From: Chloroflexota bacterium
GTDB lineage: Bacteria > Chloroflexota > Dehalococcoidia > Lucifugimonadales > Lucifugimonadaceae
Length of the DNA: 64,000 bases
Direction: 5' to 3'
NCBI GenBank assembly: GCA_022574675.1
Contig: JACZRO010000002.1
Span: forward strand, 8,529-72,528
Of the stretch, positions 4,515 to 58,716 are shown piece by piece. Each line of letters starts with the position of its first letter. Position 1 is the first letter of the stretch. The notes below the pieces were generated by a model. That model was not told the DNA's origin, made no database searches, and saw nothing but the letters and a program-made list of their open reading frames with translations. The translations under genes and the position numbers were made by a program.

Positions 4515-4539
4515 GGGGTTAAGGCAGCCCGGGGTAGCG

Positions 4540-5305: not shown

Positions 5306-5325
5306 CCGGCAAATTCGTCGACGTC

Positions 5326-5353
5326 AACGCCCCGTTTGCCGGGGCGTTTTTTT
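5326..5353 (+). terminator. Rho-independent terminator
   Basis: AACGCCCCG-tttgc-CGGGGCGTT followed by a run of T (5347..5353). Confidence 0.7.
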
Positions 5354-5431
5354 ATCTGGATGCGCTTCCCCGTGCCGGCGAGGCACCCGTAGCCGCCTTT
5401 CCACACATTTTTCCGATCCCGGGCGCCGGAA

Positions 5432-5944
5432 TCAGTAAGTGACCAGCGAGTGAACCTCGTGGTCTTTCAGCACAGCCCGTCCGTTCAACGCGGCCAGTTC
5501 CACGACAAACGCCATGGCGAGTACCTGCGCGCCCAACCGTTCGATAAGCAGCGCCGCCGCCGCAGCCGTGCCGCCGGTGGCCAGCAGGTCATCCACCACC
5601 AGCACACTGTCACCCTGCTTCAGGGCGTCGGTCCGAATCTCCATGTGGCCAGCGCCGTATTCAAGTTCAAAGTCGACCCCGACCACCTCCGGCGGGAGCT
5701 TGTTCTCCTTGCGTAACGGGACGAAGGGGAGTCCCAGCCCCAACGCTATGGGCACGCCAAACATGAATCCCCGCGACTCGATGCCGGCTACCGCGTCGAT
5801 CGGCGCGTCCCGGTACTTGTCCACGAGGCTATTCACTGCGTAGCTGAACGCCTCCGGCGCCTTCCACAATGGTGTGAGGTCCCGGAACAGGACGCCGGGT
5901 TGCGGGTAGTCCGGGATATCACGGATCCAGTTCTTCAGGTCCAC
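5432..5944 (-). CDS. apt: Adenine phosphoribosyltransferase
   Basis: 170 aa. IRDIPDYPQPGVLFRDLTPL, GIESRGF, PRPP-binding loop VLVVDDLLATGGTA. Confidence 0.9.
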   Translation of the reverse strand: MDLKNWIRDIPDYPQPGVLFRDLTPLWKAPEAFSYAVNSLVDKYRDAPIDAVAGIESRGFMFGVPIALGLGLPFVPLRKENKLPPEVVGVDFELEYGAGHMEIRTDALKQGDSVLVVDDLLATGGTAAAAALLIERLGAQVLAMAFVVELAALNGRAVLKDHEVHSLVTY

Positions 5945-6047
5945 GGTCGACTCCAGCCGTTACCAGGGATCTCGCACGGTCGTGTTCGGGTTCAAGCAGA
6001 GTCTAATCGTGGGCACACGAACACGCACCCGAAGGTATGGCCCGGCA

Positions 6048-7151
6048 TTACGTCAACGGGTACAGCTCGGTCTCCGGATAGAAATCGGACCAGGCGAACC
6101 AGAACGACACAATGGAGTGGACCCGCTCAAGCTGCACGCCTTCCAGTTCCCCGTCGATCCCGCGTCCGGTGAACGGCAGGAAGCGCGAGCCCGTCGCCTT
6201 ATCGCGAAGCAGGACCGTGCCATCGTCATCGACCACCTGCTCAAACTCCAGGCGCCGTCCATTCACCACCCGGTTGTATACCAGGGCGGTATCGCTGTTC
6301 GGCTGAAAAAATATGACCACGTCCTTGCCCGCCACGGTGTCGTTCACGACCGGCATAGCTTCGAGCGCGGACAGGGGAAACGCCTTCGGCCCACCATCGA
6401 AGCCGATCCCGACGACCTTGTCCTTGCGTGCCAGGCGGTCGTCGACGATGGACTCGCCAATTACGCCGGCGTCGTTATTGACGTAGTACCCGTCATACGG
6501 ATCGGAGGAACCGCGGCGGCCCTTGTCCAGGACAGCCGTGTCGGGGTGCTCACGCACCCACTGGCCGTACGTCGTCTGTACGATCGGAATGGTCTCCAGG
6601 TACCGGCCGGCGAACTCACCCTTGACCCCGCGTGACAGGAACTGGCTCCAGAGAGTGCCGCTCTGGTGGTCGTACATCACCAGCGCGTTCATGATCAGCT
6701 TTCCGGACACACCAAATGTGTGCTCGACTCCGTCTATCGTCCGGGCATACCCGATGCCGGTGAAGCAAAGCGGTCACCAGGTGACGGCTATGGGAACCCC
6801 GCCGACGGTATCGTTCACGATCTCCCGTCCGCTCAGGAATGGTATCGAGTAAACGCGACTGTCCCCGTTTATCGTTACGCCCAGCACCGGCTCGTCGTCG
6901 TCGTACGTCTCGGCCTGTTCCGGTGAAATGAACCGCGGATTGAGAATCGCCTGGATGCCGTCCCGCGGCAGCAACGTGACGATCTCCAGCGTACGGTCGA
7001 GGGACGCAGGGTCATTTGGATCGCCCGGCAACACGATGGTCTCCTTGCTCAGTAGCGCAATCCGCAACGCTCCCGGTCCGCCCAGGACGAAGAACATGAC
7101 GAGGCCCGCGGCGGCCAGTCCCATGAACAGATATGACCTGGGAATCTTCAA
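6048..7151 (-). CDS. DUF3179-family exported protein with an in-frame TGA (6774..6776) at the first Cys of the conserved CPLC motif; candidate selenoprotein or nonsense pseudogene
   Basis: Track ORFs 6774..7151 and 6048..6710 share one frame. Read-through gives ...IVNDTVGGVPIAVTW[TGA]PLCFTGIGYARTIDGVEHTFGVSGKLIMNALVMYDHQSGTLWSQ..., and there is an N-terminal TM/signal anchor. Confidence 0.7.
6741..6760 (-). other. SECIS-like hairpin 13 nt downstream of TGA 6774..6776
   Basis: mRNA CCGGCAU-CGGGU-AUG(C)CCGG. 7 bp with one bulged C and a G-rich 5-nt loop. Confidence 0.4.
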
Positions 7152-7316
7152 CTGGAATTCCAGTCCCTTTTCCGGGGCGATTCACTGCGCCCTGGCTGTT
7201 CCGGGTTAATTTCCGAACTGATCGTTTAGATGAGGCAGAGCGCATCCCGGTTCCGCGGTGACGCGATCACCGAAAGATCGAGGCGCCGATGCTAAAATCC
7301 GTGCCCTCCGCGCTCC

Positions 7317-8579
7317 GTGGACATTCCTCCCGGCGGCGCTACCTCCAGGCAGACCGAACTCGCACCCGGGATTCCGCCCATCCGCATCACGAAACTCAGC
7401 CTCTCGAACTTCCGTAACTTCTCAGAATGCTCGCTCGACCTGGAGCCCGGGATAACGGTGTTCCAGGGACCGAACGGCCACGGCAAGAGCAACCTGATGG
7501 AGGCCGTCTACCTGATCGCTATCGCCAAGTCGCCGCGATCGTCTTCCGATCGCGAGCTTCTCGGGTGGGATGTGGTGCAAAACGGGGGCCACGTACAGAT
7601 CGCCGGCGTCGCCCGGGATGACGAGCTCACCGTGCAGGTCCAGATCGATTTCGACGTGATCCCGCGGCCTCCGGAGCCGGGGAGCGGCGGCGCGAGGCCG
7701 GCGCCGTCTGTGCGGAAAGAGTTGCGCATCAACGGCGTGCAGAGGTCGGCGGCGGATTTCGTCGGTGCGGTAAACGTGGTGGCGTTCTCGGCGGACGACA
7801 TCCAACTGGTCATGGGTGGACCGTCCGTCAGGCGAAGATACCTGGATATCCTGATCTCCCAGAGCGATCCACCGTATCTGAAGATGATCCAGCGTTACAG
7901 CCGTGTCGTGAATCAACGCAATCATCTGTTGCGTCAGATGCGCGAGGGCCGGGTCGGGTCGGACGAGCTTGAGTTCTGGAACGACCGGTTGGTGAACGAA
8001 GGGGCGGCGATCATCGAGCGACGCGGGCGCGCCGTGGAGCGGCTTGCCGAGGAGGCGGCACCGCGACACCTCGCCCTGTCCGGCGGGCGTGAGCGACTAG
8101 GCGTCCAGTACCGGCCGCGCGTCTCGGCGAACGCGGAGGACGGCCCAGACCCAGTCCCCACTTCGGCGTCGGAACTGGCGTCGATCATGCGCGCCTCGCT
8201 TGAGACGGTCAGGCCCCGCGAGATCGGCCAGGGCGCTACCGTCATCGGTCCTCACAGGGACGAGATCGCACTGAGCCTGAACGACGAGCCGGCGGGCGCG
8301 TTTTCGTCCCGCGGGCAGGCGCGCACCGCCGCGCTCGCGTTGCGTCTCGCCGAGGCCGCGTTCGTCACCTCTGCGACGGGCCGGACGCCGGTGCTCGCGC
8401 TGGACGACGTGCTGTCGGAGCTGGACCAAACTCGACGCAAGCTGGTGCTGGAGAACGTGGCTTCGTACGAGCAGGTGTTGATCACAACGACCGATTTCGA
8501 CCGCGTGGAGGACTCGTTCCTCTCGGGCGCGGCCCGGATGACGGTCGAGTCCGGTTCGGTGATTCGTGTCGACGGCTGA
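7317..8579 (+). CDS. recF: DNA replication and repair protein RecF
   Basis: ITKLSLSNFRNF..., Walker A GPNGHGKSNLMEA, C-terminal signature/Walker B LALDDVLSELD. GTG start. Confidence 0.9.
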   Translation: MDIPPGGATSRQTELAPGIPPIRITKLSLSNFRNFSECSLDLEPGITVFQGPNGHGKSNLMEAVYLIAIAKSPRSSSDRELLGWDVVQNGGHVQIAGVARDDELTVQVQIDFDVIPRPPEPGSGGARPAPSVRKELRINGVQRSAADFVGAVNVVAFSADDIQLVMGGPSVRRRYLDILISQSDPPYLKMIQRYSRVVNQRNHLLRQMREGRVGSDELEFWNDRLVNEGAAIIERRGRAVERLAEEAAPRHLALSGGRERLGVQYRPRVSANAEDGPDPVPTSASELASIMRASLETVRPREIGQGATVIGPHRDEIALSLNDEPAGAFSSRGQARTAALALRLAEAAFVTSATGRTPVLALDDVLSELDQTRRKLVLENVASYEQVLITTTDFDRVEDSFLSGAARMTVESGSVIRVDG

Positions 8580-9477
8580 CGTCTCCTCCGCGATCAGCGC
8601 GGCGGCGCAGCACATCGCATCGAGCGAATACGTCGTCGCCATGACCGGGGCCGGGATCTCCGTCGAGAGCGGCATTCCACCGTTTCGGGGTCCTGACGGG
8701 TTGTGGACGAAACACGGCACGCCTTCGCACAACGGATACCAGCGTTTCCTGGAGGATCCGGCTGCGTGGTGGCGCAGGGAGATGGAACGCTCCGTCGAGC
8801 CCTGGGTCGCCGAGTTGCGTCGAGCGGTCAGGAACGCCCGGCCGAACCCCGGCCACACCGCTCTCGCCGAGATGGAACGGGCCGGTTACGTGCGCTCCGT
8901 CATCACCCAGAACATCGACGGGCTGCACACGGACGCCGGCACGGAGAACATCGTGGAGATCCACGGGTCGAGACGATATCTTCGTTGCGTAGAGTGCGGC
9001 GACAAGACGCCGCGGACGTCCCTGTTCGCCACCGAGCCTGCCCCGCCCTGCAACGTCTGCGGCGGCCCGGTCAAGTACGACTCGGTGTTGTTCGGCGAGC
9101 CGATCCCGCCACGGGTCATGGAATCGGCCCGCGAGGAAACGAACCGCGCAGATTGCGTCCTGGTGATCGGCAGCTCGTCGACGGTGCGCCCGGCCGGTGG
9201 GCTGCCCCGGATCGCGCGCGCCAACGGGGCGAAGTTGATCGAGGTGAACACCTCCGGCACGCGTCTCACACCGGTTTGCGATGTGGTGATACAAGCCCCT
9301 GCGGCGATCGCTCTGCCGGCCTTGCTGGTCGAGCTGCGCCAGGTCGGCGTACCCCGGGGTGGCTTACCGGGGACGCCCGAACCGGACGAGGAACACCCAG
9401 AGCACGTGAGGTTTCCGGGAACTCGTCCGCAAAACCCGCCCGAACGCCGGCGTCGGAGAGGGCCGGGCGCAGAGTAA
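8566..9477 (+). CDS. NAD-dependent protein deacylase (Sir2 family)
   Basis: GAGISVESGIPPFRG, TQNIDGLH, zinc ribbon CxxC...CxxC (CVECG...CNVCG), VIGSS. Overlaps the recF stop by 14 nt. Confidence 0.85.
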   Translation: MSTADVSSAISAAAQHIASSEYVVAMTGAGISVESGIPPFRGPDGLWTKHGTPSHNGYQRFLEDPAAWWRREMERSVEPWVAELRRAVRNARPNPGHTALAEMERAGYVRSVITQNIDGLHTDAGTENIVEIHGSRRYLRCVECGDKTPRTSLFATEPAPPCNVCGGPVKYDSVLFGEPIPPRVMESAREETNRADCVLVIGSSSTVRPAGGLPRIARANGAKLIEVNTSGTRLTPVCDVVIQAPAAIALPALLVELRQVGVPRGGLPGTPEPDEEHPEHVRFPGTRPQNPPERRRRRGPGAE

Positions 9478-9534
9478 TATTCCGGCGCGCGCCGCGTGGC
9501 GATCGCATTCAGAGTTAGTTTCGGGGTCGTATCG

Positions 9535-10896
9535 ATGACAACCCAGGACGCGCTAGCCCAGGACGCACTCCGGGGCGAGATAGACACCTATATCGCGCAG
9601 AACCCAAAATCTGAAGCCCTCAACGCGGAGGCGGCCCGGTACCTCCCGGGCGGCGATTCCCGAAACTCGATCTACTGGCCGCCCTACCCCGCGTACATCG
9701 TGGGCGGCGAAGGGACGCGCATCACCGACGCCGACGGCAACGTCCGGACCGATTTCATCAACAACATGACGACGCTGATCGTCGGGCACCGCCACCCTGA
9801 CGTGGTCAAGGCCCTGCAGGACCAGGTCTCAGAGGGCTGGTCATACCCGGGGCCGTCGCCGTCCCAGATCCGCTGGGCGGAGATCCTGGTCGAGCGCGTG
9901 CCGTCCGTGGAACAGGTCCGGTTCGTCAACTCCGGCACCGAGGCCACGCTCAACGCCATTCGCGCCGCCCGGGCTTTTACCGGCCGCCAGAAGCTGGGCA
10001 AGATGGAGGGCGGATATCACGGCACCCACGACTCGGTGGCGGTGAGCGTCGCACCGAAACTTGACCTCGCGGGCGACGCCCTGAATCCGAACTCGGTGCA
10101 GGACTACGAGGGCCTGCCGTCGTGGGTGACGGAAGGCGCCGTGGTGATGCCGATCAACGACATCGAGGCCTGCGAAAGGATCATCCGGGCGAATGCCGGC
10201 GACCTGGCGTGTGTAATTGTCGAGCCTGTCAACGGGCGGAACGGGTTCGTTCCCGCCGAGCCCGGTTTTCTTGAGGGGCTGCGCGCCGTCACGAAAGAGC
10301 TCGGCGTCATCCTGATCTTCGACGAGGTGATCTCGTTCCGTGTGGCGCGCGGCGGCGCTCAGGAGCACTACGGCGTCACGCCGGACATGACCACGTTCGG
10401 CAAGGTGATCGGTGGCGGGCTGCCGGTCGGCGCGTTCGGCGGCCGCGCTGACATCATGTCGCTTTACGACCCGAGCAACGGCGCTCCACGGGTGCAGCAC
10501 GCAGGCACGTTCAACGGCAACCCGATGACGGCGGCGGCCGGTGTGGCGACGCTGGAGGCGGCGACGCCGGAGGTGTACGAGTACGTGGGCCGGATGGGGG
10601 GCGTGATCCGCGAACGGTTGCGGGCGCTGATCGCAGAGGTCGAGGCGCCGATGGGCGTGACGGGCGTCGAGTCGCTCTGGTGCCTGCAGTTCACGCCGGA
10701 ACGCGTGACCGATTACCGGACCTCGATGACGAACGACAAGGTGATGACCCGGTGCATGTTCCTCGGCCTCCAGAACGAGGGCTTCCTGCTCTCACCCAGT
10801 TGCCAGGGCACGGTGTCGTCCGTGCATACCGAGGAGGATGTCGACGGGTTGATAGCCGCGATCCGAAAGGTGCTCGGAAGACTGGGTTACGCCTAA
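9535..10896 (+). CDS. Class-III (PLP) aminotransferase, glutamate-1-semialdehyde aminomutase-like
   Basis: YLPGGDSRN..., VNSGTEATLNAIRAARAFTGR, GGYHG, FDEVISFRV, TFGKVIGGGLPVGAFGG. Start taken at ATG 9535; the ORF opens at 9496. Confidence 0.8.
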   Translation: MTTQDALAQDALRGEIDTYIAQNPKSEALNAEAARYLPGGDSRNSIYWPPYPAYIVGGEGTRITDADGNVRTDFINNMTTLIVGHRHPDVVKALQDQVSEGWSYPGPSPSQIRWAEILVERVPSVEQVRFVNSGTEATLNAIRAARAFTGRQKLGKMEGGYHGTHDSVAVSVAPKLDLAGDALNPNSVQDYEGLPSWVTEGAVVMPINDIEACERIIRANAGDLACVIVEPVNGRNGFVPAEPGFLEGLRAVTKELGVILIFDEVISFRVARGGAQEHYGVTPDMTTFGKVIGGGLPVGAFGGRADIMSLYDPSNGAPRVQHAGTFNGNPMTAAAGVATLEAATPEVYEYVGRMGGVIRERLRALIAEVEAPMGVTGVESLWCLQFTPERVTDYRTSMTNDKVMTRCMFLGLQNEGFLLSPSCQGTVSSVHTEEDVDGLIAAIRKVLGRLGYA

Positions 10897-10950
10897 GAAA
10901 TGATCTCAAAAGCCACCGCCCGGCATGCATGAACGACCTCCGCACGCCAA

Positions 10951-11048
10951 CGCATCGTAGGGGCCGCTGGCTACCGGCCCGGGTGGTGCGGCAGGGCGTG
11001 GAGCCGAGCAACTGTGCCGGAAAGGGCGGATAGTCAGCCGCCCCTACA
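10951..11048 (+). repeat. 98-nt composite palindromic element, copy A (two inverted GTAGGGGCsGCTGrCTAyCsGCCC units)
   Basis: Hand alignment to the reverse complement of 21169..21266 gives about 81/98 identical positions. The terminal units are mutually complementary. Confidence 0.75.
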
Positions 11049-11237
11049 CGGGTCTGTGAAACTATCTCAAAAGCTGTAGTCCAGTGCGGTCCCACGATGC
11101 AAAATTCGCCCGCGCCCGCAATCACATTCACCGGGCGAGACGGTTTTGAGATAGTCACTAAGGGGCTGCCACAAGAGACCACCAATCACGAGCCGATCAA
11201 AACCGGGGGAAGTGTTCTTCCACCGAGCCGGGCGGTG

Positions 11238-11816
11238 TCAGCCGGTGAAAGGGAATTCGCGTATCACGCGCCGCTCCCCGTCCGGTCCCGTGCCAACACG
11301 TCCCGTCAGGCTAAGGCGGTCCACTGTGAACTCCTCGAGATCAAACTCCGCAACGAGCCGGGTTCCGAGCTTTTTCGCCGACTCGGGTATCCGCTGGAAA
11401 TAGGTCAGATGAGGGTGGTAATCGGCCGGGTCGTGATAGGCGTTGGTCGCCGTCGGCAGTACGGCCCGCGCCAGCCGGTCATGCAGCGACTGTAGTTCCG
11501 GGGTGACCTCGATCCGTGCCGTGGACAACAGGAGGCCGTCCGGCGACCCCCAGATTTCGCCCGTTGGCGTCATGGTCAAGGCCCCTGTCCCCATCACCGC
11601 TTCGGCCACCTGCTCGCAGACGCGATCCACGCTCTCGATCTCGCAGAAAGCGCCCAGGGCGGTCACGTGCGCCTGGAACATGGGCCATGCAGGACGAAGT
11701 TGATCGCGAAGGCGCTGGACCCGGGAAGCGATCGGCTCTGGCGCCGCCAGTACCAGGCCGTAGACGCTGTAACCGTGTACGTCGTTCGGACGGTAGCTTG
11801 CGTCGATTATCTGCAT
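11238..11816 (-). CDS. 2H-phosphoesterase superfamily protein (LigT / 2'-5' RNA ligase-like)
   Basis: Two HxT motifs (FQAHVTALG and HPHLTYFQ). Start moved to ATG 11816 because the upstream 39 codons consist of a repeat unit (11841..11863). Confidence 0.6.
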   Translation of the reverse strand: MQIIDASYRPNDVHGYSVYGLVLAAPEPIASRVQRLRDQLRPAWPMFQAHVTALGAFCEIESVDRVCEQVAEAVMGTGALTMTPTGEIWGSPDGLLLSTARIEVTPELQSLHDRLARAVLPTATNAYHDPADYHPHLTYFQRIPESAKKLGTRLVAEFDLEEFTVDRLSLTGRVGTGPDGERRVIREFPFTG

Positions 11817-11840
11817 CGGGCTCACCTCACCGAACCCACT

Positions 11841-12996: not shown

Positions 12997-14739
12997 CTAC
13001 AACGAAGGCGACGTTTGTGTCCGGCTCTGTAAACGTTGTTGTTCTCGGGCCATGTACTGATGTATCTGCGGGACCGCGGCCGCTCCTTCGCCCACCGCCG
13101 AGGCCACTCTTTTGATCGAGCCATCGCGCACGTCACCTGCGGCGAATACGCCTGGAATACTGGTCTGCAAAAACAGGGAGTCCGGCCAACCTTCTAGCCG
13201 ATCCCTGACGGCGTCTCCAGTAACGATGAAGCCAAAGTCATCGCATTGGAGCGTGTCTTTGAGCCACTCGGTTCGAGGACGAGCCCCGATCAGGATGAAT
13301 ACCCCATGGGCCGGTTCTGTCCAGGTCTTTCCTGTCCGGTTGTCTCGTAGTTCCAGTGATTCGAGTAAATGTTCGCCGTTGGCCCTTACCATCTCCGTGT
13401 TTGTGGCAACGTTGACGTTTGCGGTGGCATCGATCTCTCTAATCAAATAGTCGGACATCGATGTAGCAAGCGAACTGCCCCGCACCAGGATCGTGACCCT
13501 GTCCGCGAACCTGGCGAAGTACACGGCGGCCTGACCGGCAGAGTTCCCGCCTCCCACGACAAAAACTTGCCTTCCAGTCATCGCGGGCGCTTCAGTTTTC
13601 GCGGCTCCGTAATAAACGCCGCGACCGGTCAACTCATTGAGGCCAGGTTGGTCCAGTAACCGGTAGGACACTCCGCAGCAGATCAAAACGGCCCGGGTGT
13701 TTACCTGAACGCCGTCGTCCAGGGTCAACCGCTTCATCCCATCAACAACCTCCAGTTTGGCCACCTCTCGGCAGAAATCGATTTCGGAGCCGAGAAGCCA
13801 CGACTGATTTATGGCTTTTAGAGCCAGATCGGTGCCACCGATTCCGGACGGGAAACCCATGTAGTTGCGGATCCGAGTACTTGTCCCGGCCTGCCCACCG
13901 GGCGCCTCCGATTCGACCATCACCGTTTTAAGGCCTTCCGAGGCCGCGTTCACCGCCGCGCTGAGTCCCGCAGGGCCGGCGCCGACAATCACCAGGTCGT
14001 ATCCCCCGGGGTCGTATTCGATGAACGCACCCATGGCCGCGGCCAGTTCGTGTTTGTTCGGTGACAACAGTACGCGCCCGTCGAGAAACCGCAGGGCGGG
14101 CAGGTCTTCAACTGATACGTTCATGCTCTTCGCAAGTTCCTGACCGGCGGGAGACTCGTAGTCGATGAAGCCGGTGGGACAAATGGACCGATCCAGGACG
14201 TCCCGTAGCCATACGGTAAAGGAGTCATTCGCTCGGCCAAGAATCGAAACGGATTCGAACCGTGGCAGGTTAGCCTGGGCCCAGTCAGTCAGGAGAATGC
14301 TGAGCTCCCTGTGGAACTTCTCGTCAGGATTCACCAGCGGTTTCAAAAAGACGGCGTCGGCCACGCCTGAAGCCATCGCCATTAACACCCGGTCGCTGAC
14401 GGCCGAGTTTGACAACCCTCCCCATGCCGTCACCATCAACGCTCGCTTGGTGTTGGGCCAGCGTTGCCGGCACTTTTCCAGCAAGGCTGAACAGCCCGAT
14501 ATGTCGGCGGCCGACAGCCAGATCGCGACCCTCTCTTCACCCGTCGCTAGCTCGATCTCCCTTTCGGCATCCTTCGTCGTTCCGTGCACGCGGATGGAGT
14601 AGTCAGATCTGTACCTGCTCTCAAGAGCCTGCTGAAGTAACAGGCGATGCTCCGCGTTCTCGTCGATCGCGATGATGAAAGGCTTGTCCATCAGACATAT
14701 CCGTTTCTTGTGTTGATGCAAGAACTCACGGTCAGGCAC
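12997..14739 (-). CDS. Three-domain flavoprotein: receiver-like N-terminus, thioredoxin/glutaredoxin-like middle, and thioredoxin-reductase-like FAD/NAD(P) domain lacking the CxxC
   Basis: DLVIVGAGPAGLSAA, VFVVGGGNSAGQAA, GVFAAGDVRDGSIKRVASAVGEGA. Where TrxR has CATCDG this protein has YGAAKTEA. The start could instead be ATG 14691. Confidence 0.75.
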   Translation of the reverse strand: MPDREFLHQHKKRICLMDKPFIIAIDENAEHRLLLQQALESRYRSDYSIRVHGTTKDAEREIELATGEERVAIWLSAADISGCSALLEKCRQRWPNTKRALMVTAWGGLSNSAVSDRVLMAMASGVADAVFLKPLVNPDEKFHRELSILLTDWAQANLPRFESVSILGRANDSFTVWLRDVLDRSICPTGFIDYESPAGQELAKSMNVSVEDLPALRFLDGRVLLSPNKHELAAAMGAFIEYDPGGYDLVIVGAGPAGLSAAVNAASEGLKTVMVESEAPGGQAGTSTRIRNYMGFPSGIGGTDLALKAINQSWLLGSEIDFCREVAKLEVVDGMKRLTLDDGVQVNTRAVLICCGVSYRLLDQPGLNELTGRGVYYGAAKTEAPAMTGRQVFVVGGGNSAGQAAVYFARFADRVTILVRGSSLATSMSDYLIREIDATANVNVATNTEMVRANGEHLLESLELRDNRTGKTWTEPAHGVFILIGARPRTEWLKDTLQCDDFGFIVTGDAVRDRLEGWPDSLFLQTSIPGVFAAGDVRDGSIKRVASAVGEGAAAVPQIHQYMAREQQRLQSRTQTSPSL

Positions 14740-15022
14740 GCGCCCGGCCTAATCGGCGTCAGGGAACGAGGTTTACCGACATGCCCGCCAGTCTACTCAA
14801 GCGGAGGCAGCGAGGGGAGCGAACACGCCGAGAGCGGTCTCTCCAAGCGGCATCACCTGAAACCATTTCCGTGATTTTGTTTCACCGGCGACGGCGCGGA
14901 TAGCTCATAGAGCAGGCGGCGCATCTGGGCTTTAGGTCGAGCGCCACGCAGATCACATCATTGCCTGTGCGCCCAAAAACGGCGCAACACTTCCCCTTGT
15001 TTTGTTTCGCCTCCATCTGTGG

Positions 15023-21644: not shown

Positions 21645-22646
21645 TCAGTCGGCGGCCACGTCCTCACCGAGCTCGTAGCCCACCGCGTGATTCCAGCAGC
21701 GCCGGCTGTGCTCCGATACGAACTGGTACGCGGCCAGCGCCGCCACGGCGCCCTGCGAGGCCGCGGTGATCGTCTGCTTGAGCGTGCCGGAGCCGTCGGT
21801 GATATCGCCGGCGGCGAAAATGCCGTCCACGTTCGTATTCATGTGCCGGTCGACGTGTATCTCGTTCGTCTCCGAATTCAACTCCACACCGAGCGTTTGC
21901 GGTATCTCGACCCGCGGATCGGCGCCGATCTCGATGAACACGCCGTCCAGCACCATCTCGTCACGACCCTCGTAGGGCTTGCTGAGCTTGACGCCTGTCA
22001 GGCCTGCGGTGTCGTCGCCGAGTAGTTCCGTGACCTCGGTCTCGAACAACACGTGGACGTTTTGTCTCTTTTCGAGCAGATCGACGAGCACCGGCTCCGG
22101 CCTGCGGAACCGGTCGCCGCGGTAGATCAGGTAGGTCTCTGTCGTGTACTTATCGAGCAGAATTGCGCCCTCAACGGCGGCGCTGCCGCCGCCCACGACA
22201 GCAACGACCTTGCCCCGGAACAGCGGGGCGTCGCAGGTCGAGCAGTAGGACACGCCCTTGCCCGTCCACGCCTCCTCATGGGGGAGGTTGAGTTTTCGGC
22301 GCTCTCGGCCGATAGCGAAGATCACGGCGCCGGCGCGTACGGTCGAGTCGTCCGAGAGCGTCGCGAGGAAGCAGTCGCCGACGTCCTCGACCGCGGTCAC
22401 CGCGGCGTCGACGATCGGCAGGTCGTACTTCTCGACCTGCTCACGGAACCTGAGCATCAGATCGAAGCCATCGATCTCCGGATAGCCCGGGTAGTTCTCG
22501 ATTCCGCCACCGATGGCGGTCTCGCCACCGAACCGGTCGCCCACGACCAGGCCGTTGAGCTTGTAGCGGGCCGTGTACAGCGCCGCGGCAAACGCAGCAG
22601 CCCCCTGTCCGGCGATAAGGACATCCGTCGTGCGGGATTCTGGCAT
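21645..22646 (-). CDS. Thioredoxin-disulfide reductase-like flavoprotein (CxxC present)
   Basis: SYCSTCDAPLFRGKVVAVVGGGSAAVEGA and GIFAAGDITDG. Confidence 0.8.
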   Translation of the reverse strand: MPESRTTDVLIAGQGAAAFAAALYTARYKLNGLVVGDRFGGETAIGGGIENYPGYPEIDGFDLMLRFREQVEKYDLPIVDAAVTAVEDVGDCFLATLSDDSTVRAGAVIFAIGRERRKLNLPHEEAWTGKGVSYCSTCDAPLFRGKVVAVVGGGSAAVEGAILLDKYTTETYLIYRGDRFRRPEPVLVDLLEKRQNVHVLFETEVTELLGDDTAGLTGVKLSKPYEGRDEMVLDGVFIEIGADPRVEIPQTLGVELNSETNEIHVDRHMNTNVDGIFAAGDITDGSGTLKQTITAASQGAVAALAAYQFVSEHSRRCWNHAVGYELGEDVAAD

Positions 22647-22807
22647 TACTTCTTCTCAGGGCCGCGAGGCCCCTTACGTTGGGGTTAAGAGGCGCGCCTG
22701 CTCATGGGTGCTGTAAGTACGATGCAATTATCGCCCGTGTGGTGCGAACATTCCGATATCGGAGGCGTTAATCGGAGCGTCGCTCGGGAGAGCCCGCGCT
22801 CTACCCC

Positions 22808-51645: not shown

Positions 51646-53256
51646 ATGTTCGACCTGTTGATCAAGAACGGCACCGTCCTGGACGGCACGGGCGCGCCCG
51701 GCTATGCCGCCGACATCGGGATCTCGGGCGACAGCATCACGGTCGTCGGCGACCTGGACGGTGAGGCGGCCCGGAATTCAACCAGGACGATCGATGCGTC
51801 CGGGCGCGTGGTGACTCCCGGGTTCATCGATCTTCACTGTCACAGCGACATGTCGTTCCTGATCGACCCGCTCGCCGATTCAAAGTTGACGCAGGGCGTG
51901 ACGCTGGAACTCAATGGCAACTGCGGCATGAGCCCCTGCGCTCCGCTACAGTCCAAAGCGGCCCGGGAAGCGCTTGAAAGCCGTTTCTTCACGGCCGGCG
52001 CGGAGTTCAGCCCGGACTGGACCGACTTCGCCGGATACCTGGACGCCCAGGAACGTGCGGAGGGCGTGATCAACCAGGCGTTCCAGGTCGGCCACGGCAC
52101 TGTGCGCACCAACGTCCTCGGCATGGACGCCCGGGCGCCGACGATCGACGAGATGGAGCAGATGAAGCGGCTGGTGGCGGAGAGCATCGACGCCGGGGCG
52201 ATGGGCTTCGCGACCGGGCTGTTCTACGCGCCCGGGAGCTACTCGCTCACCGACGAGGTGGTGCAGCTGGCGCAGGAGGCCGCTGACCGCGGGGTGCTGT
52301 ACTCGAGCCATATCCGGTCGGAGTCGAACGATAGCGTCGGGCTGCACGTCGCGGTGAACGAGGCGATCGAGATCGGCCGCCGCACGGGCGGTCGCATCCA
52401 GATGTCACACGTCAAGGTAAAAGGCCCGTTCACCTGGGGCCGGGCCGACGAGGTCCTGGACCTGCAGGCGCGTGCCCGGCGTGAGGGTATCGACGTCGCC
52501 GGCGACCAGTACCCGTATGTTGCGTCGAGCACCTCGCTAACCGGAGGGTTGTTCCCGCGCTGGGCGCTGGTGGGCGGGCGGACCGCCACGCTGGAGATGA
52601 TGGACGACTCAGATCTCCGGGCGCGCTTGCGAGACGGCATCGACTGGAACATCAAGAGCTTCATGGGCTCTCCCGACCGTGTTCTTCTAGCCGCGTACGG
52701 GCCGGACCGAAGTCGCGAGGGTCAACGGTTGAACGAGATCGCGGACGACATGGGGTGTGAGCCAGCGGAGGCGGCGATCAGGCTTTACGAAGGGGCCGAG
52801 GCGTCTATCGTCCAGTTTTCGTTGCACGAAGACGATGTAGATCTGATCGCCCGCGACCCGTTCATCGCCGTCGCCTCCGATGGCAACTCGGTGCGCTCGG
52901 AAGGCCCGTTGTCGAGCGGCAAGCCCCACCCTCGTTCATACGGGACGTTCCCGCGTTACCTGGCAGAGATGCACCGGGATAAAGGCCTGGTTTCGCTAGA
53001 GGAGGCCGTGCGCAAGATGTGCGCATTGCCGGCGTCTCGGCTGCGTCTGACTCGACGGGGCCGGATCGCGCCCGGCTGTTTCGCGGACGTGGTGGTGTTC
53101 AACCCGGACACCGTACAGGACCGCGCCACTTTCACAGACCCGCACCAGTACACGACGGGGATCGACGCCGTCGTGGTCAACGGGCAGATCGCGCTGGAGG
53201 ACGGGTCGCCGACCGGGGTCCGGGCCGGGCGGGTGGTGCGGTCCGCAGACGGCTAG
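51646..53256 (+). CDS. N-acyl-D-amino-acid deacylase (D-aminoacylase) family amidohydrolase
   Basis: MFDLLIKNGTVLDGTG..., PGFIDLHCHSD, ...ADVVVFNPDTV... Confidence 0.85.
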   Translation: MFDLLIKNGTVLDGTGAPGYAADIGISGDSITVVGDLDGEAARNSTRTIDASGRVVTPGFIDLHCHSDMSFLIDPLADSKLTQGVTLELNGNCGMSPCAPLQSKAAREALESRFFTAGAEFSPDWTDFAGYLDAQERAEGVINQAFQVGHGTVRTNVLGMDARAPTIDEMEQMKRLVAESIDAGAMGFATGLFYAPGSYSLTDEVVQLAQEAADRGVLYSSHIRSESNDSVGLHVAVNEAIEIGRRTGGRIQMSHVKVKGPFTWGRADEVLDLQARARREGIDVAGDQYPYVASSTSLTGGLFPRWALVGGRTATLEMMDDSDLRARLRDGIDWNIKSFMGSPDRVLLAAYGPDRSREGQRLNEIADDMGCEPAEAAIRLYEGAEASIVQFSLHEDDVDLIARDPFIAVASDGNSVRSEGPLSSGKPHPRSYGTFPRYLAEMHRDKGLVSLEEAVRKMCALPASRLRLTRRGRIAPGCFADVVVFNPDTVQDRATFTDPHQYTTGIDAVVVNGQIALEDGSPTGVRAGRVVRSADG

Positions 53257-53332
53257 CGTCCCGGGTGATTCAGGAACGGCCGGGCACGCACGCGGCGTGC
53301 ATGGGCGCCCGAAACGTGACTCGCAAGGCGAA

Positions 53333-53548
53333 TCAGCCAGCGCCGGACAACGCCTCACTCTGTTTTGGCGGGCAGCGGCGGTCCGCGTAGGAGCAAAAGA
53401 CGCAGCATTCGCCTTCCTTCGGCCGGAGCAGCTCGCCGCACGACGTGCAGTCGTAGAACACCTGTCAGGTGTCGGCCGGCATTGTCTCCCGTTTCGCGGC
53501 GCCACAGGCCGGACAGGTCAGTACGGCTTCCAGAAATATCTTCGGCAT
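53333..53548 (-). CDS. GDCCVxC-type small Cys-rich protein with in-frame TGA at codon 28 (53465..53467); candidate selenoprotein
   Basis: Hand translation: MPKIFLEAVLTCPACGAAKRETMPADT[TGA]QVFYDCTSCGELLRPKEGECCVFCSYADRRCPPKQSEALSGAG*. Not in the ORF track because of the TGA. Confidence 0.7.
53440..53454 (-). other. SECIS-like hairpin 10 nt downstream of TGA 53465..53467
   Basis: mRNA ACGAC-UGCAC-GUCGU. Confidence 0.35.
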
Positions 53549-53635
53549 CGTCTCGTTCCCTCTTGCCGGTCTCCGTTGCCGGGCCGGGGAGTTGTTGTTC
53601 ATAGCTGGTGGTTAGAGGGCGGCCGTTCGCGCGCC

Positions 53636-54349
53636 TCAGCAGTCACACGCGATCTCGTCATCTGGGTCGCCGACCCTCTCCTCCGCGTCAACTCGCCACA
53701 TGGTGCCGATGAGCCGGCCGCCGGACGTCGCGACCAGGATGCGATCGACGTTACGCGCCTGCATCCGTTCCAGAATCGGCGCCGCCTCGGCGTCTGGGCG
53801 GGATGTGGTCGGGCCGAGCTCCATGATGTCCTCGACGACAGCTGCGGGGTCGCCCGCCAGCGCCGGAGCACGCAGCCGGCCGAGGATGATCCGTTGTTCG
53901 TTGACGACAATGCACTGGTCCTGGTTCGCGGCGCGCGCGCGCTCGGCCGCATCTCCGACGGTATCCTCCAGCGCGCAGGTCACGTCGTCCGTCCGAGCCA
54001 CGTCAGCAGCCCGGAGGACGGGCATTGCGTCGCCCTCGCGCGGCAATCCTGCGGCGAACCAGTCCGCCTTTCCCGCCTCGTAGTCATATACGTTTGTAAA
54101 GCCAAGGGATTCAAGCCGCGCCGCGGCTCGTAGACTCATGTCTCAAGTCGCGTCGTGTCAGTACAGGACGACCGGGCGGGCGCGATCGAGGACGGCCGCG
54201 GTGTCCCGGTTGAGCTTCTTGAGGGGGAGGTTGATGGCGCCGGGCAGACGGCCCTCGGCGTACTCGCGGGCCGGGAGCACGTCGACGAGCTGGGTATCCT
54301 CATCGTCGAGCATTCTCTGAAGTTCATCTCGTGAAACCGTCGTTGGCAT
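53636..54349 (-). CDS. Rhodanese-domain + CBS-pair protein with two in-frame TGA codons (54158..54160 and 54143..54145) in the active-site loop; candidate di-selenocysteine protein
   Basis: Track ORFs 54158..54349 and 53636..54139 are in one frame. Read-through gives ...DRARPVVLY[TGA]HDAT[TGA][34 protein letters not shown]..., followed by a CBS pair. Confidence 0.7.
54114..54128 (-). other. SECIS-like hairpin 14 nt downstream of the second TGA (29 nt from the first)
   Basis: mRNA AGCCG-CGGCG-CGGCU. Confidence 0.35.
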
Positions 54350-54382
54350 TCGATTTTCCTTCCAATCAGGCCCATCGCCGCG

Positions 54383-54925
54383 TCAGATCGCTTCTTCTAT
54401 GTACTGCGCCAATCGGTCGTACCCCACCGGGGGGCCGCTGTAGACCACTCGATGGTCACGGTCCAGCACTACCGTGTGTCCGAGAACCCGTACCCGGAAA
54501 TCCGAGACGAGTTTCCCGTCCGGCGCCACAGCCCAGGACACGTCGGCCGCCCCTTTAGACCGCCAGTACTGGACCCAGCTTTGTAGTGGATCCCCGTAGA
54601 TGTCGATCGCTACCGTTCGCAGCCCCTCGCTTCGATACTTCTCTTGAAGCGCCCCGAGGACTGGAGCCTCCAGTCCGCATGTCGGTCAGCCAACGAACGA
54701 AAAATAGATGACGAGCGGCCGGTCGGCATGGTCCACGAGGCGGAACTCGGACATCTCCAGGGTCCCTTCACCCACCGCGTCGGCGACCTGAATCGAAAAC
54801 TCCGGAGAGGGCGGCCGGCCGGAGACCAGTTCTTCTGAGGTTCTCTCCGAGCTTTGGCAGGCGATGGTCGCGATCATTCCGATTACGACCACCGCGCCTA
54901 TAAATGGCAAGCGGATCAATCTCAC
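54383..54925 (-). CDS. TlpA/ResA-like thioredoxin-fold protein (signal/lipoprotein-like N-terminus) with in-frame TGA (54686..54688) at the first Cys of CxxC; candidate selenoprotein
   Basis: Read-through gives ...DRPLVIYFSFVG[TGA]PTCGLEAPVLGALQEKYRSEGLRTVAIDIYGDPLQSWVQYWRSKGAADVSWAVAPDGKLVSDFRVRVLGHTVVLDRDHRVVYSG...*. N-terminus MRLIRLPFIGAVVVIGMIATIAC. Confidence 0.7.
54658..54676 (-). other. SECIS-like hairpin 9 nt downstream of TGA 54686..54688
   Basis: mRNA GGACUGGA-GGC-UCCAGUCC (8-bp perfect stem; or 7 bp with loop AGGCU). Confidence 0.45.
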
Positions 54926-55095
54926 CGGCTCTGCTCTTCCCCCGCCGTCAACTCCGGCGCGGGCTTCTCCGCGTCGCGTAAATCAAGCTCGGTCTCGTCA
55001 CCCTCGTGAGCCCTCGATCTCAGTCCTCTGACGGCGACCACCGCCGCAATGGCGATCGGTATGCAACATACCGCTGCGGCTAGAAAAAAAGGCAC
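54922..55095 (-). CDS. Small single-pass membrane protein with a vicinal Cys pair in the TM helix
   Basis: GTG 55095 preceded by GGGGGA. (M)PFFLAAAVCCIPIAIAAVVAVRGLRSRAHEGDETELDLRDAEKPAPELTAGEEQSR*. Its stop overlaps the GTG start of the next gene (GTGA). Not in the ORF track. Confidence 0.45.
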   Translation of the reverse strand: MPFFLAAAVCCIPIAIAAVVAVRGLRSRAHEGDETELDLRDAEKPAPELTAGEEQSR

Positions 55096-55139
55096 CTGTC
55101 ATCCCCCTAAAGTTCCCGTGTCCTCAGTCCAACTGGCGT

Positions 55140-55811
55140 TCAGGCGTACTTCAACAAGGAAGCCCAGGCTTGCTTTCCGAGATCGAACGCATCCGGCAAC
55201 GATAGGAAGACGACTTTCATGTCCCTGCCCTCGGACCACTCTTTTGCCTCAGCCTGATTCGCAAAGAAATGGACTTGCTGGCAGAACGTCATGTAGATGG
55301 ACTCGATAGAACTTCCGTCATCGCCTGCCGGGTCCAGCATGATCATGGATACGACGGCATCCGGGTGACTGCTCGACGACACGCCCTCCGGCGTGACGGT
55401 CAACGTGATCGACTCTCCCGATGACGGAGAATTGGATACGACCAGGGCTTCTTTGCCGAGGGCCGGCGGCAGGAACAACGAATCCCACGCGCACCAGGTA
55501 CTCAGTCGAACGCCGGATACGGTGAACTGGTGCGGGTGCTCGTTGAGCGACAGGCCCGCTACACCGAGGATGTTGTCGTCATCATCTCGTTCAGATATCT
55601 CCCGTACGAACGCCTCGGCGGCATCTCGATCCACGCCCAGGGCGTCGGAGATCTCGGAAACGTCGGCCGGCCGGATCGGATCGCCTTCGGCCAACCGTCG
55701 CCATATTGCGATCAGAACCCGGGCGTCGTCGGATCCAAACAAAGGCGGTATGCCGGCGGAGTTCAGATTTTCGGCGATTTCTCCGATGGTCAGCTGCGTG
55801 TTGGTCGTCAT
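55140..55811 (-). CDS. merB: Organomercurial (alkylmercury) lyase MerB
   Basis: LSTWCAWDSLFLPPALGKEALVVSNSPSSGESITLTVTP and TFCQQVHFFANQAEAKEW align with the MerB catalytic regions (YAWCALDTLIFPALIG... / SFCCHVHFFAS...). The Cys-Asp-Cys triad is conserved. Confidence 0.85.
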   Translation of the reverse strand: MTTNTQLTIGEIAENLNSAGIPPLFGSDDARVLIAIWRRLAEGDPIRPADVSEISDALGVDRDAAEAFVREISERDDDDNILGVAGLSLNEHPHQFTVSGVRLSTWCAWDSLFLPPALGKEALVVSNSPSSGESITLTVTPEGVSSSSHPDAVVSMIMLDPAGDDGSSIESIYMTFCQQVHFFANQAEAKEWSEGRDMKVVFLSLPDAFDLGKQAWASLLKYA

Positions 55812-55858
55812 TTCACGATTCTCTGTTGTTTACTCGCCTGTTAGCGCGTTTCTTTGTC

Positions 55859-56215
55859 TTACCGGAGCGTCTGGCAGGCGATGACCTGCTCGGCGTTATC
55901 TGCCAGCACTTGCTCTGCGCCTCGGAGGAGGTCCGCTACGCGGTCATCTCCGATGGAATAGATCACTCTCTTGCCGTCGCGCACGGACGCCACGAGCCCG
56001 CACCACTTGAGACAGGCGAGGTGCGTCGAAATCCTGCTCTGGGACCCTCCTGTGCCTTCCACGAGTTCGCCCACGCTTTGCGGGCCTTCGTCCAGAAGAA
56101 GTTTCAATATTCGGACCCGGGTAGGATCGCCGAGCGCCCGGAAGAACTTGGCCAGCAGGTCGGCTTGAGCCGCCAACAATTCCTGCGTGCGCTCTCGAGT
56201 TAGCGTTGTGGTCAT
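55859..56215 (-). CDS. ArsR/SmtB-family metalloregulator
   Basis: FFRALGDPTRVRILKLLLDEGPQSVGELVEGTGGSQSRISTHLACLKWCGLV. The Cys pair in the recognition helix region is a possible metal site. Confidence 0.85.
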   Translation of the reverse strand: MTTTLTRERTQELLAAQADLLAKFFRALGDPTRVRILKLLLDEGPQSVGELVEGTGGSQSRISTHLACLKWCGLVASVRDGKRVIYSIGDDRVADLLRGAEQVLADNAEQVIACQTLR

Positions 56216-56233
56216 AGTTCACTTCCATGTATT

Positions 56234-56284
56234 CGCAATTGCGGATATGAGGTACATGATGACCCAGAATTGCGATTGACGCAA
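56234..56284. promoter_or_regulatory. Candidate operator palindromes upstream of the ArsR-family gene
   Basis: CGCAATTGCG (56234..56243, perfect palindrome) and TTGCG-attga-CGCAA (56270..56284). Both contain AATTGCG. Confidence 0.3.
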
Positions 56285-56330
56285 GCGCGATCGAATTGGA
56301 GGCAGACGCTTGTCTGACGGACCAATGGCG

Positions 56331-56393
56331 TTCGAGGACGGAGCGCCGACCGGCGTCAGGGGTGGCCGGGTGGTGCGGTCCGAGGACGGCTAG
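56331..56393 (+). pseudogene. Relic copy of the D-aminoacylase 3' end (direct repeat of 53194..53256)
   Basis: 52/63 nt identical by hand alignment. Encodes FEDGAPTGVRGGRVVRSEDG* versus LEDGSPTGVRAGRVVRSADG* at the real gene end. Confidence 0.55.
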
Positions 56394-56977
56394 TCCGCGA
56401 GCTTCGACCAGGTCTCGGCCCAGGCCAGGACGGCGCTGCTGGTGGGCCGGCCGAAGCGATTCTCTTCGTACGGCTCGCCGGCCGCAAAGTCGCCGTCGAC
56501 GGTGATCCTCGCCTCACGCGCCTGCACGAAGGTCGTCCACGCGCTCAACGGTATCTGGCCTTCACCCCTGCCGCCCGGCATGTGCATCACAAAGGCGGGC
56601 TGAAGGTCGGTCCATGTCAGCGAGAACTCCTCGGCGTCTGAGGTGACGAACTCGGTCGAGTACGAGCGGGCGTCGCCCTCGCGAAGAAACTCGGCATCGC
56701 GGACCGGCAGGGATGTATCGGCGTGGCGCGGGTACAGAAACCCCTGGATATTGACCTGCAGGAAGCGTGCGAGGGCGATGTTGTCGCTGTAGACGCGCGC
56801 CTCGCCCCCGGTCATCTCGCCTTCGTAGAACAGAACGTGGCCGGGTCCGGCGGGGGTCCACAGCACACGCCAGTGGCTCGCGCGCTCCGTGATCGTCTCG
56901 CCGCCGTCGCGGCTGAGCCTGATGAACGAGTTCTCGCCGACGAGGATAACTTCGCCGTTATCGATGATGGGAGGCAT
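56390..56977 (-). CDS. Hypothetical protein (195 aa)
   Basis: Protein-like ORF. No family recognised. Confidence 0.5.
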   Translation of the reverse strand: MPPIIDNGEVILVGENSFIRLSRDGGETITERASHWRVLWTPAGPGHVLFYEGEMTGGEARVYSDNIALARFLQVNIQGFLYPRHADTSLPVRDAEFLREGDARSYSTEFVTSDAEEFSLTWTDLQPAFVMHMPGGRGEGQIPLSAWTTFVQAREARITVDGDFAAGEPYEENRFGRPTSSAVLAWAETWSKLAD

Positions 56978-57534: not shown

Positions 57535-58716
57535 TTGACTTACGACCTGGTGATCAAGAACGGGACCGTGATCGACCCGTCGCAGGACCTGCACGCGCGG
57601 CGCGACGTCGCCATTGCCGGCGGGCGGATCGTGGCGGTAGATGAGCATGTCTCGGACAACGACACCCACGACGTCATAGAGGCGGACGGCCTGCTCGTGC
57701 TCCCGGGTCTCGTGGACCTCCACGTGCACGTGTGGTGGGGCGTCGCGCACCTTGCCATCGAGGCCGACGCCCATTCACTGTCGCGCGGCGCAACGACGAT
57801 CGTGGACGCCGGGTCGGCGGGCGCCAACACGATAGCCGGGTTCCGCCGCTACGTGATCGACCAGGTGGATGCGAGGACCCTCGCCTTCCTCCACATATCG
57901 GGCATGGGCCAGCTCGATCAGGAGATCGGAGAACTGGAGGACATCCGCTGGGCGCGCGTCGATAAGGCGGTCGAGGCGGCGAAGATGCATCCGGACGTCA
58001 TCGTCGGCGTCAAGGTTCGGCTGACGGAGGGGATCGTCGGCAAGAACGACCTGGTCGCGCTTGACCGGGCGATCGAAGCCGCCGGGTACCTGGACAAGCC
58101 CGTAATGATCCACATCGGCGGAACGCACCACGACCTGGAGGAGATACTCGGCCGGCTGCGCCCCGGCGACATCGTCACGCACAGCTTCACGGCCAACCCG
58201 CCGGGCATCATCACCGACGCCGGCGCGGTCCTCCCCGCCGCGCTGGAGGCGCGCGCCCGCGGCGTGAACTTTGACGTGGGACACGGAGCGGGCAGCTTCA
58301 GCTTCCGCGTGGCCGAGGCGGCGCTTGAACACGGGTTCACGCCGGCCACGGTCTCGAGCGATGTCCATCGTTACAACGTTCGCGGCCCGGTGTACGACCT
58401 GGCGACGACGCTCTCCAAGTTCCTCCATCTCGGCCTCTCGCTCGACGAAGTCGTCCGGCTCGCCACTTCGGCCCCGGCGAGCGCTGTCGGGCGCGGCGAC
58501 CAGTTCGGGACGCTCAGGGTCGGCGTCGAGGCGGACGTGAGCGTCATGCGGCTTGAAGAGGGCGCGTTCAGGTTCACCGACGCCCCGGGCGACGTGCGTA
58601 TCGGCGACAGGCTGCTCACCCCGGTCGTTACGTTGCGCGCCGGTCGGCGGCATGCGCCGACACACGGCGCCCACCCCGATCTACTGACCCAGCATCCACA
58701 TCAATCTCCCGCATGA
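57535..58716 (+). CDS. Amidohydrolase/deacetylase-family metallohydrolase
   Basis: LVIKNGTVIDP..., PGLVDLHVHVW. TTG start. Confidence 0.8.
   Translation: MTYDLVIKNGTVIDPSQDLHARRDVAIAGGRIVAVDEHVSDNDTHDVIEADGLLVLPGLVDLHVHVWWGVAHLAIEADAHSLSRGATTIVDAGSAGANTIAGFRRYVIDQVDARTLAFLHISGMGQLDQEIGELEDIRWARVDKAVEAAKMHPDVIVGVKVRLTEGIVGKNDLVALDRAIEAAGYLDKPVMIHIGGTHHDLEEILGRLRPGDIVTHSFTANPPGIITDAGAVLPAALEARARGVNFDVGHGAGSFSFRVAEAALEHGFTPATVSSDVHRYNVRGPVYDLATTLSKFLHLGLSLDEVVRLATSAPASAVGRGDQFGTLRVGVEADVSVMRLEEGAFRFTDAPGDVRIGDRLLTPVVTLRAGRRHAPTHGAHPDLLTQHPHQSPA

Follow-up and report, generated by a model that had tools for sequence, protein, structure and literature searches.

In a 64,000-nucleotide (nt) stretch of contig JACZRO010000002.1 from a Chloroflexota bacterium of the class Dehalococcoidia (GenBank assembly GCA_022574675.1), referred to here as the window, a block of six genes separates a D-aminoacylase-like amidohydrolase gene from a convergent gene encoding a conserved 195-amino-acid (195-aa) protein. 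Taken as a whole, this arrangement is likely best explained by an ancient insertion into the 3' end of the amidohydrolase gene that left this end duplicated and was followed by remodelling of the inserted cargo. An earlier reading of the letters alone (hereafter the sequence-only reading) had interpreted the repeat around the block as an insertion signature, a view now supported by relatives that are syntenic on both sides of the junction and carry nothing in it. The insertion scar itself is of an ordinary, known kind, and the more noteworthy part is the cargo, which is rich in predicted selenocysteine (Sec).

The last 20 codons and the TAG of the 536-aa amidohydrolase gene (53194..53256) recur at 56331..56393 with 52 of 63 positions identical. 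TAG terminates both copies, which translate as LEDGSPTGVRAGRVVRSADG (53194..53256) and FEDGAPTGVRGGRVVRSEDG (56331..56393) ahead of the stop; repeat, shared stop codon and translations all reproduce what the sequence-only reading had described. When the 63-mer was scored along both strands of the window (127,876 positions), the background mean was 18.3 matches (standard deviation 3.7) and the best unrelated score 36/63, against which 52/63 rules out chance similarity of the copies. In a repeat search the two copies reached a length of 77 nt with 81% identity (53180-53256 and 56317-56393, spacing 3137 nt), and beyond these copies no similarity was found, either 5' of the 77 nt or 3' of either TAG. 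The TAG of the right-hand copy (56391-56393), which we call the stub, shares a CTAG with the TAG stop codon (56390-56392) of the minus-strand 195-aa gene. The parts of the junction are as follows.

51646..53256, plus strand: D-aminoacylase-like amidohydrolase gene, 536 aa, intact, the target gene (Pfam Amidohydro_3 and Amidohydro_1; NCBIfam NF006560)
53180..53256, plus strand: left repeat copy, apparently the functional 3' end of the amidohydrolase gene, ending in VNGQIALEDGSPTGVRAGRVVRSADG and the stop
53257..56316, minus strand: inserted cargo, 3060 bp, six genes, co-directional with the 195-aa gene lying upstream
56317..56393, plus strand: right repeat copy (stub), apparently the orphaned former amidohydrolase 3' end, non-coding, 81% identical to the left copy
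56390..56977, minus strand: gene for the conserved hypothetical 195-aa protein, the right-hand anchor (1237 homologs)

Relatives were retrieved through the 195-aa protein and the window proteins were mapped onto each locus, which yielded about 15 related loci, labelled here with L and a number. The sole match in a one-genome-per-species GTDB set, L021, is a Dehalococcoidia metagenome-assembled genome from 4000 m depth with 76-80% nucleotide identity and synteny along 20 kb. The contents of the junction in the relatives are given below, with the identity of the 195-aa protein to that of the window in brackets.

L025-L028 (about 71-72%): nothing between the core genes; stops 15 nt apart
L033 (71%): nothing between the core genes; stops 3 nt apart
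L021, L022, L034, L036 and L039 (74-86%): 300-390 bp holding the gene for an 87-aa membrane protein; without stub
L037, L038 and L114 (84% in L037 and L038): rhodanese-CBS, with the start of the 87-aa gene in L038; without stub
L031 (71%): rhodanese gene right after the 195-aa gene, where the contig ends; without stub
L023/L024 (81%): ArsR, CC-motif protein, rhodanese-CBS, DUF3105, GDCCVxC, MerR, HMA, DsbD_TM and thioredoxin; stub of about 81-84 nt
L035 (78%): ArsR, CC-motif protein and rhodanese-CBS; stub present

At least five alternative arrangements occur at this junction, which is therefore a hotspot. Empty sites of the kind that the sequence-only reading had proposed to look for, with the amidohydrolase gene directly followed by the 195-aa gene, exist in L025-L028 and L033, where both flanks are syntenic and the amidohydrolase tails end in GRVVRSEDG; in syntenic loci the amidohydrolase orthologs share 86-90% aa identity. 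The window's cargo is absent from these sites, and other cargo occupies L021, L022, L034, L036, L039, L037, L038, L114 and L023. The stub appears to be the orphaned original 3' end of the gene because it adjoins the 195-aa gene exactly where the genuine tail sits in the empty sites; in addition, RSEDG precedes the stop in the stub and in the empty-site tails, RSADG in the functional tail of the window, and amidohydrolase homology to the orthologs stops about 2 nt beyond the stop codon, at 53258. Orthologous stubs are found in L023 and L035, and the stub is apparently under no coding constraint, because the L035 copy has been frameshifted by an indel. These data point to the stub as a non-coding relic of the original gene end and to the left copy as its working replacement. 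The window, L023/L024 and L035 have in common the entire junction of ArsR gene, spacer, stub and 195-aa gene, including the CTAG overlap, and differ in their cargo. When the stub-less junctions (those with the 87-aa gene or with rhodanese only) were compared by BLAST with every amidohydrolase tail, no significant stub was found. A sliding identity window against L035 and L023 over the 195-aa gene, stub and ArsR gene revealed no sharp step of recent recombination.

Individual loci at this junction show further variation. In L021 a resemblance of about 17 nt adjoining the 195-aa gene is visible by eye and was not counted as a stub. The 87-aa gene, found in L021 at 10589-10979 and also in L022, L034, L036 and L039, follows rhodanese-CBS in L038 (about 7380-7460) and probably encodes a three-helix membrane protein. 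The CBS half of rhodanese-CBS is frameshifted in L037 (about 5080-5400) and intact in the near-identical L038 and L114, which reflects either a sequencing error or a recent pseudogene. In L005 (ERZ23495207 scaffold_12439, 4466-4569, corresponding to about 56389-56399 of the window) the sequence diverges directly past the CTAG stop of the 195-aa gene and continues with 94 nt of unrelated DNA carrying a ribosome-binding site and ATG, a 10-N gap, and then CGCGGACTAG and the stub; this alternative path could stem from faulty scaffolding or from a strain in which the junction holds a different insert. In L023 (GCA_027623795.1, JAQBUX010000032.1, 7906-9534) the match to the window breaks off 11 nt before the start codon of the amidohydrolase gene. 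Instead of the FAA-hydrolase gene, the adjoining genes encode a cytidylate-kinase-like protein and a phage prohead protease (Peptidase_S78), so that this genome has another region, variable or phage-derived, flanking the target gene on its opposite side.

Rooted on L029, a neighbour-joining tree built from the 195-aa protein places the empty lineages L025-L028 and L033 as sister and basal, with bootstrap supports of 77-99; L023, L035 and the window, which carry ArsR and stub, form a grade, and the stub-less variants make up the crown clade. In the outgroup L029, which lacks the cassette, the gene downstream is an unrelated one (PFK). The insertion thus appears old, and no recent acquisition by the window genome, because the L023/L024 and L035 lineages share the same ArsR and stub junction. 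One insertion after the split from the empty lineages would be the simplest reading of the direction of change, a polarity that we infer rather than demonstrate because recombination between the repeats could recreate an empty site.

In the course of events that we favour, the ancestor would have had the amidohydrolase gene (plus strand) and the 195-aa gene (minus strand) in convergent orientation with their stops nearly touching, and a DNA segment with a metal-resistance operon on it would have inserted some 80 nt ahead of the amidohydrolase stop codon, bringing or generating a second copy of the last 80 nt or so. Single-crossover (Campbell-type) integration of a circle carrying a look-alike of the gene end would give the observed structure; with such an end supplied, the amidohydrolase gene would have stayed intact, using the left copy (53180..53256) as its tail, and the former tail would have been stranded against the 195-aa gene as the stub (56317..56393). 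The replacement end could have been supplied by the element or duplicated from the native end. We only infer this mechanism, because neither an integrase nor a transposase was found among the window ORFs scanned and the composition of the block is barely atypical. The insertion would have been a single event that preceded the separation of the window lineage from the L023 and L035 lineages. Its cargo would then have been remodelled by modules, with MerB and the UxxC redoxin in the window lineage only and DUF3105 and the MerR-HMA-DsbD-thioredoxin set in L023 only, and the crown clade would have lost ArsR and stub, with no recombinase remaining today.

Several observations weigh against a single old insertion from outside. 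No integrase, transposase or recombinase occurs among the open reading frames (ORFs) scanned across the 64-kb window, and no recombinase lies within about 10 kb of the block in any same-species contig; the sequence-only reading had likewise noted no integrase. That reading had also judged the block less GC-rich by eye, which is only weakly true: its GC is 61.8%, at the 10th percentile of windows of its size, and the window averages 63.7%. In GC at third codon positions (GC3) the cargo genes, at 0.67-0.77, fall within the spread of the window (mean 0.76, standard deviation 0.07), although the two adjacent flanking genes reach 0.85-0.86. The composition of the block is marginally atypical and near-native, and as evidence of foreign origin it was too weak and was dropped. 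Proteins identical to the flanking ones are found on 19 and 10 contigs of marine metagenome assemblies, and among the places shown the block is present in all, with no same-population empty site or circular junction. The amidohydrolase tree disagrees in part with that of the 195-aa protein and sets L033 beside L023, with low support. Finally, stub and tail resemble each other more within a genome than the stubs do between genomes: in the window and L023 the similarity of each stub to its own tail is 0.83 and 0.86, versus 0.76 between the two stubs, and both window copies have GAG-GAC versus GAG-AAC in other sequences, as both L023 copies have GCN and CTG versus GTN and GTG elsewhere. A simple single old insertion does not predict this likeness, which, as weak evidence from 63-87 nt, may reflect either gene conversion that made the two copies alike or several independent events.

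These observations bear on the alternatives to different degrees. The sequence-only reading had offered as its own alternative that the stub is the last remnant of a mostly deleted paralogous amidohydrolase beside the 195-aa gene, and this now seems hardly credible. The intact frame and stop of the window's stub could be those of a gene remnant, and a different amidohydrolase gene does lie nearby (57535..58716), but the similarity of this 393-aa amidohydrolase is confined to a 34-nt N-terminal motif, and its gene is located on the opposite side of the 195-aa gene. A second amidohydrolase, full-length or not, stands at the stub position in none of the roughly 15 related loci, and we reject paralog decay because no relative has one; moreover, a single gene abuts the 195-aa gene in the empty sites, and the 5' boundary of the stub is nearly the same (about 77-84 nt) in three lineages. 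It is also very unlikely that the occupied state is ancestral and that L025-L028 and L033 became empty by precise excision or recombination between the repeats. Direct-repeat recombination would restore exactly the empty arrangement, and the placement of L033 beside L023 in the amidohydrolase tree is in keeping with such a loss, but the empty lineages are sister and basal in the 195-aa tree and the outgroup lacks a cassette; even under this scenario the repeats remain insertion scars.

A local origin of the duplication of about 80 nt, through staggered breaks, repair synthesis or a split tandem duplication, with both copies native and no att element involved, is unlikely, yet several of the findings above speak for it: the lack of a recombinase in the window ORFs scanned and nearby, the near-native composition, the lineage-specific substitutions shared by tail and stub within one genome, and the ability of the same junction to take other cargo without a stub. 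Against it, target duplications of about 80 nt are atypical of known transposition and end-joining, the exact preservation of the target's frame and stop is what element-borne att sites achieve, and in L116, a locus described below, a serine recombinase accompanies homologous cargo. We retain integration into the gene end, with a replacement end and later remodelling, as the likely origin of the arrangement.

Integration into the 3' end of a gene with provision of a replacement end is familiar from e14 and phage 21 in icd of Escherichia coli and from islands that target tRNA and tmRNA genes. The window resembles such integrative elements in having a flanking repeat derived from the target's 3' end, an intact target ORF, a displaced fragment of the gene end and empty sites in relatives. 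Unlike in them, neither the cassette, whose six genes all have other assignments, nor the window ORFs scanned contain an integrase or excisionase, and the insert is only 3.1 kb long, old, remodelled and near-native in composition.

The cargo consists of six genes, as the sequence-only reading had described for its operon between the repeats, with the amendment that three of the six are interrupted by in-frame TGA codons. In the order of the operon these genes and the putative control region are:

56230..56275, no strand assigned: operator-like palindromes upstream of arsR (TATTCGCAATTGCGGATA; AATTGCGA repeated 27 nt away)
55859..56215, minus strand: ArsR/SmtB-family metalloregulator, 118 aa, first operon gene (NCBIfam NF033788, 89.5 bits, cut-off 55; Pfam HTH_5)
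55140..55811, minus strand: organomercurial lyase MerB, 223 aa (Pfam MerB, 97 bits, cut-off 27)
54922..55095, minus strand: small membrane protein, 57 aa, with a vicinal Cys-Cys in a hydrophobic helix (FLAAAVCCIPIAIAAVV)
54383..54925, minus strand: membrane-anchored Redoxin/TlpA-like gene (Pfam Redoxin, E 1e-8), in-frame TGA at 54686-54688
53636..54349, minus strand: rhodanese-CBS gene, 237 codons (Pfam Rhodanese and CBS), in-frame TGAs at 54158-54160 and 54143-54145
53333..53548, minus strand: GDCCVxC-domain (seleno)protein gene, 71 codons (NCBIfam NF041374, E 4e-28, 97 bits, cut-off 40)

Judged by these families, the cargo would be an ArsR-controlled operon for organomercurials and mercury. 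ArsR, which shares 88-96% aa identity with its counterparts in L023 and L035, where the spacer upstream of arsR is homologous as well, would act on the palindromes at 56230-56275, its putative operator, to repress the operon until metal binds. MerB would cleave the carbon-mercury bond of organomercurials; aligned to the solved structure 3f2g, it pairs WCAWD with WCALD and FCQQVHFF with FCSHVHFF, the motifs of the catalytic Cys96, Asp99 and Cys159. The released Hg(II) would be bound and passed on by the CC-motif protein, the UxxC redoxin, the UxxxxU rhodanese-CBS and the GDCCVxC protein. The 57-aa CC-motif membrane protein, a candidate Hg(II) carrier, matched no family in Pfam or NCBIfam searches and has a counterpart ORF between ArsR and rhodanese in L023 and L035 (LLIAACCAVP, against AAAVCCIPI in the window). 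Neither MerB nor the Redoxin gene is present in the L023 and L035 loci. A scan of the block for promoter and terminator consensus sequences found nothing, and Rfam returned only a tRNA-Pro for the whole window at gathering thresholds and nothing for the block at E<=5.

Counting against this functional assignment, the NCBIfam MerB equivalog score of 152 bits lies below its cut-off of 193, and MerA was found neither in the block nor among the scanned ORFs of the window; the Pyr_redox_2 ORFs of the window (13000-14748 and 21648-22655) have neither a Pyr_redox_dim nor an HMA domain. Because no MerA was found, Hg(II) would be reduced to Hg(0) only with the help of a gene elsewhere, if at all. The sequence-only reading had also proposed to look for the block next to other flanking genes. 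The MerB-containing version was found in no other genomic context, because not one of the 600 pattern matches from a MerB peptide-pattern scan of JGI metagenome contigs was confirmed. The closest non-self MerB is 74% identical and sits on a 1.2-kb contig, all others reach at most 54%, and a homolog of 48% identity (L117-L119) lies in an unrelated context near transposases, without other cargo genes.

Four in-frame TGAs are distributed across the three minus-strand cargo genes, and read as selenocysteine (U) they create the motifs VG-U-PT-C in the redoxin (54686-54688), Y-U-HDAT-U in the rhodanese domain (54158-54160 and 54143-54145) and MPADT-U-QVFY in the GDCCVxC protein (53465-53467). Both rhodanese TGAs and the frame downstream of them are kept in L023, L035, L037, L038, L114 and L115 at 70-86% nucleotide identity, and the GDCCVxC TGA is kept in the L023 ortholog; the redoxin TGA has no diverged ortholog, and the count of conserved codons covers the other three. 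We conclude that the three genes probably encode selenoproteins, because the TGAs that have orthologs (three of the four) are conserved in them. Cysteine takes the place of the first rhodanese TGA in L116 (Y-C-HDAQ-U), whose redoxin homolog has CPSC at the window's TGA site, and NCBIfam itself names NF041374 (GDCCVxC) a "(seleno)protein" family. A query with the 167 residues past the second rhodanese TGA retrieved hundreds of homologs, nearly all called at 177-178 aa; these (homologs of window 53636-54139; P0128-P0240) begin just past the TGA position, which suggests that rhodanese-CBS is a widespread selenoprotein family systematically truncated in annotation.

An 8-bp hairpin 13 nt past the second rhodanese UGA is conserved, with one-sided changes only, and overlaps conserved codons. 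The other UGAs are likewise followed by hairpins, the one in the redoxin at a distance of 9 nt, with z-scores short of significance, and none of the hairpins has an Rfam match. The window ORFs scanned include no sel genes, and tRNA-Pro is the only tRNA in the window.

Like mer operons that include MerB, the cassette combines MerB motifs with a metal-sensing repressor, operator-like palindromes and thiol-rich accessory proteins, and relatives occupied at the same site add MerR, HMA, DsbD and thioredoxin. It departs from such operons in that its regulator is of the ArsR rather than the MerR type, no MerT or MerP is recognisable, MerA is missing from the cassette and the scanned ORFs, MerB scores below the NCBIfam cut-off, and three accessory genes contain TGA. 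A further parallel is a mer island in L116 (JGI Ga0526522_0001089, 1269-11830, Chloroflexota), which holds MerR, a MerA-like Pyr_redox protein, two HMA genes, YHS, Redoxin (CPSC), DsbD, glutaredoxin, rhodanese(C..U)-CBS, MerB, a second MerR, HTH_17 and a 508-aa large serine recombinase, with smpB adjoining. Window and L116 share homologs of rhodanese-CBS (57% aa identity), Redoxin and MerB in one co-directional cluster. Unlike the window, L116 has the MerA-like Pyr_redox protein, both MerR and both HMA genes, DsbD, glutaredoxin and the large serine recombinase with HTH_17, and both its redoxin CxxC and the first of the two rhodanese positions carry Cys where Sec is predicted in the window. Because this island ends with a serine recombinase, homologous cargo evidently travels on integrative elements.

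Another parallel is provided by TsoB (NF045694), a UxxxxU rhodanese with two Sec, and TsoR (NF045707), an ArsR-type regulator (PMC13188914). The window likewise has a UxxxxU rhodanese loop with two Sec and an ArsR-family regulator in the same operon, and both gave weak hidden Markov model matches, at 37.9 bits for TsoB (cut-off 805) and 46.7 bits for TsoR (cut-off 115). Its rhodanese is fused to a CBS pair, however, and not to a DsbD-like membrane domain as in TsoB, and no TsoA, TsoC, TsoX or TsoY homologs were seen.

The scar adds a clean, dated example of its kind in an uncultured marine, Dehalococcoidia-like lineage, and a single core-gene junction with at least five states should be useful for tracking the turnover of the flexible genome in metagenomes. 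Standard gene callers break up three of the six genes at their TGA codons, which leaves the cassette annotated in pieces, and truncation of the same sort appears to affect hundreds of public rhodanese-CBS homologs. If organomercurials are indeed handled with Sec and without MerA, the cassette would bear on how deep-ocean bacteria process methylmercury. Going further, the repeat of about 80 nt might be the att site of integrase-less cassettes that are mobilised in trans and swap cargo (87-aa protein, rhodanese-CBS, ArsR sets, MerB) at this junction, with the window version a MerA-less organomercurial module in which four Sec in three proteins replace Cys chemistry for Hg(II); we regard this extended picture as quite unlikely.

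Elsewhere in the window the genes are housekeeping genes, including those for IF-2, NusA, ProRS, RseP, Dxr, RRF, PyrH, EF-Ts and cytochrome c maturation. The 195-aa protein matched no Pfam or NCBIfam family. The 583-aa ORF at 13000-14748 (minus strand) matches Pyr_redox_2 only at residues 250-555, and its 250-aa N-terminal part is unassigned; lacking dimerisation and HMA domains, it does not resemble MerA. A second direct repeat, of 34 nt and 85% identity, links 51651-51684 with 57543-57576, at the 5' ends of the 536-aa and 393-aa amidohydrolase genes; we rejected it as part of the scar, as it encodes the common N-terminal motif DL(L/V)IKNGTV of the different amidohydrolase at 57535..58716.

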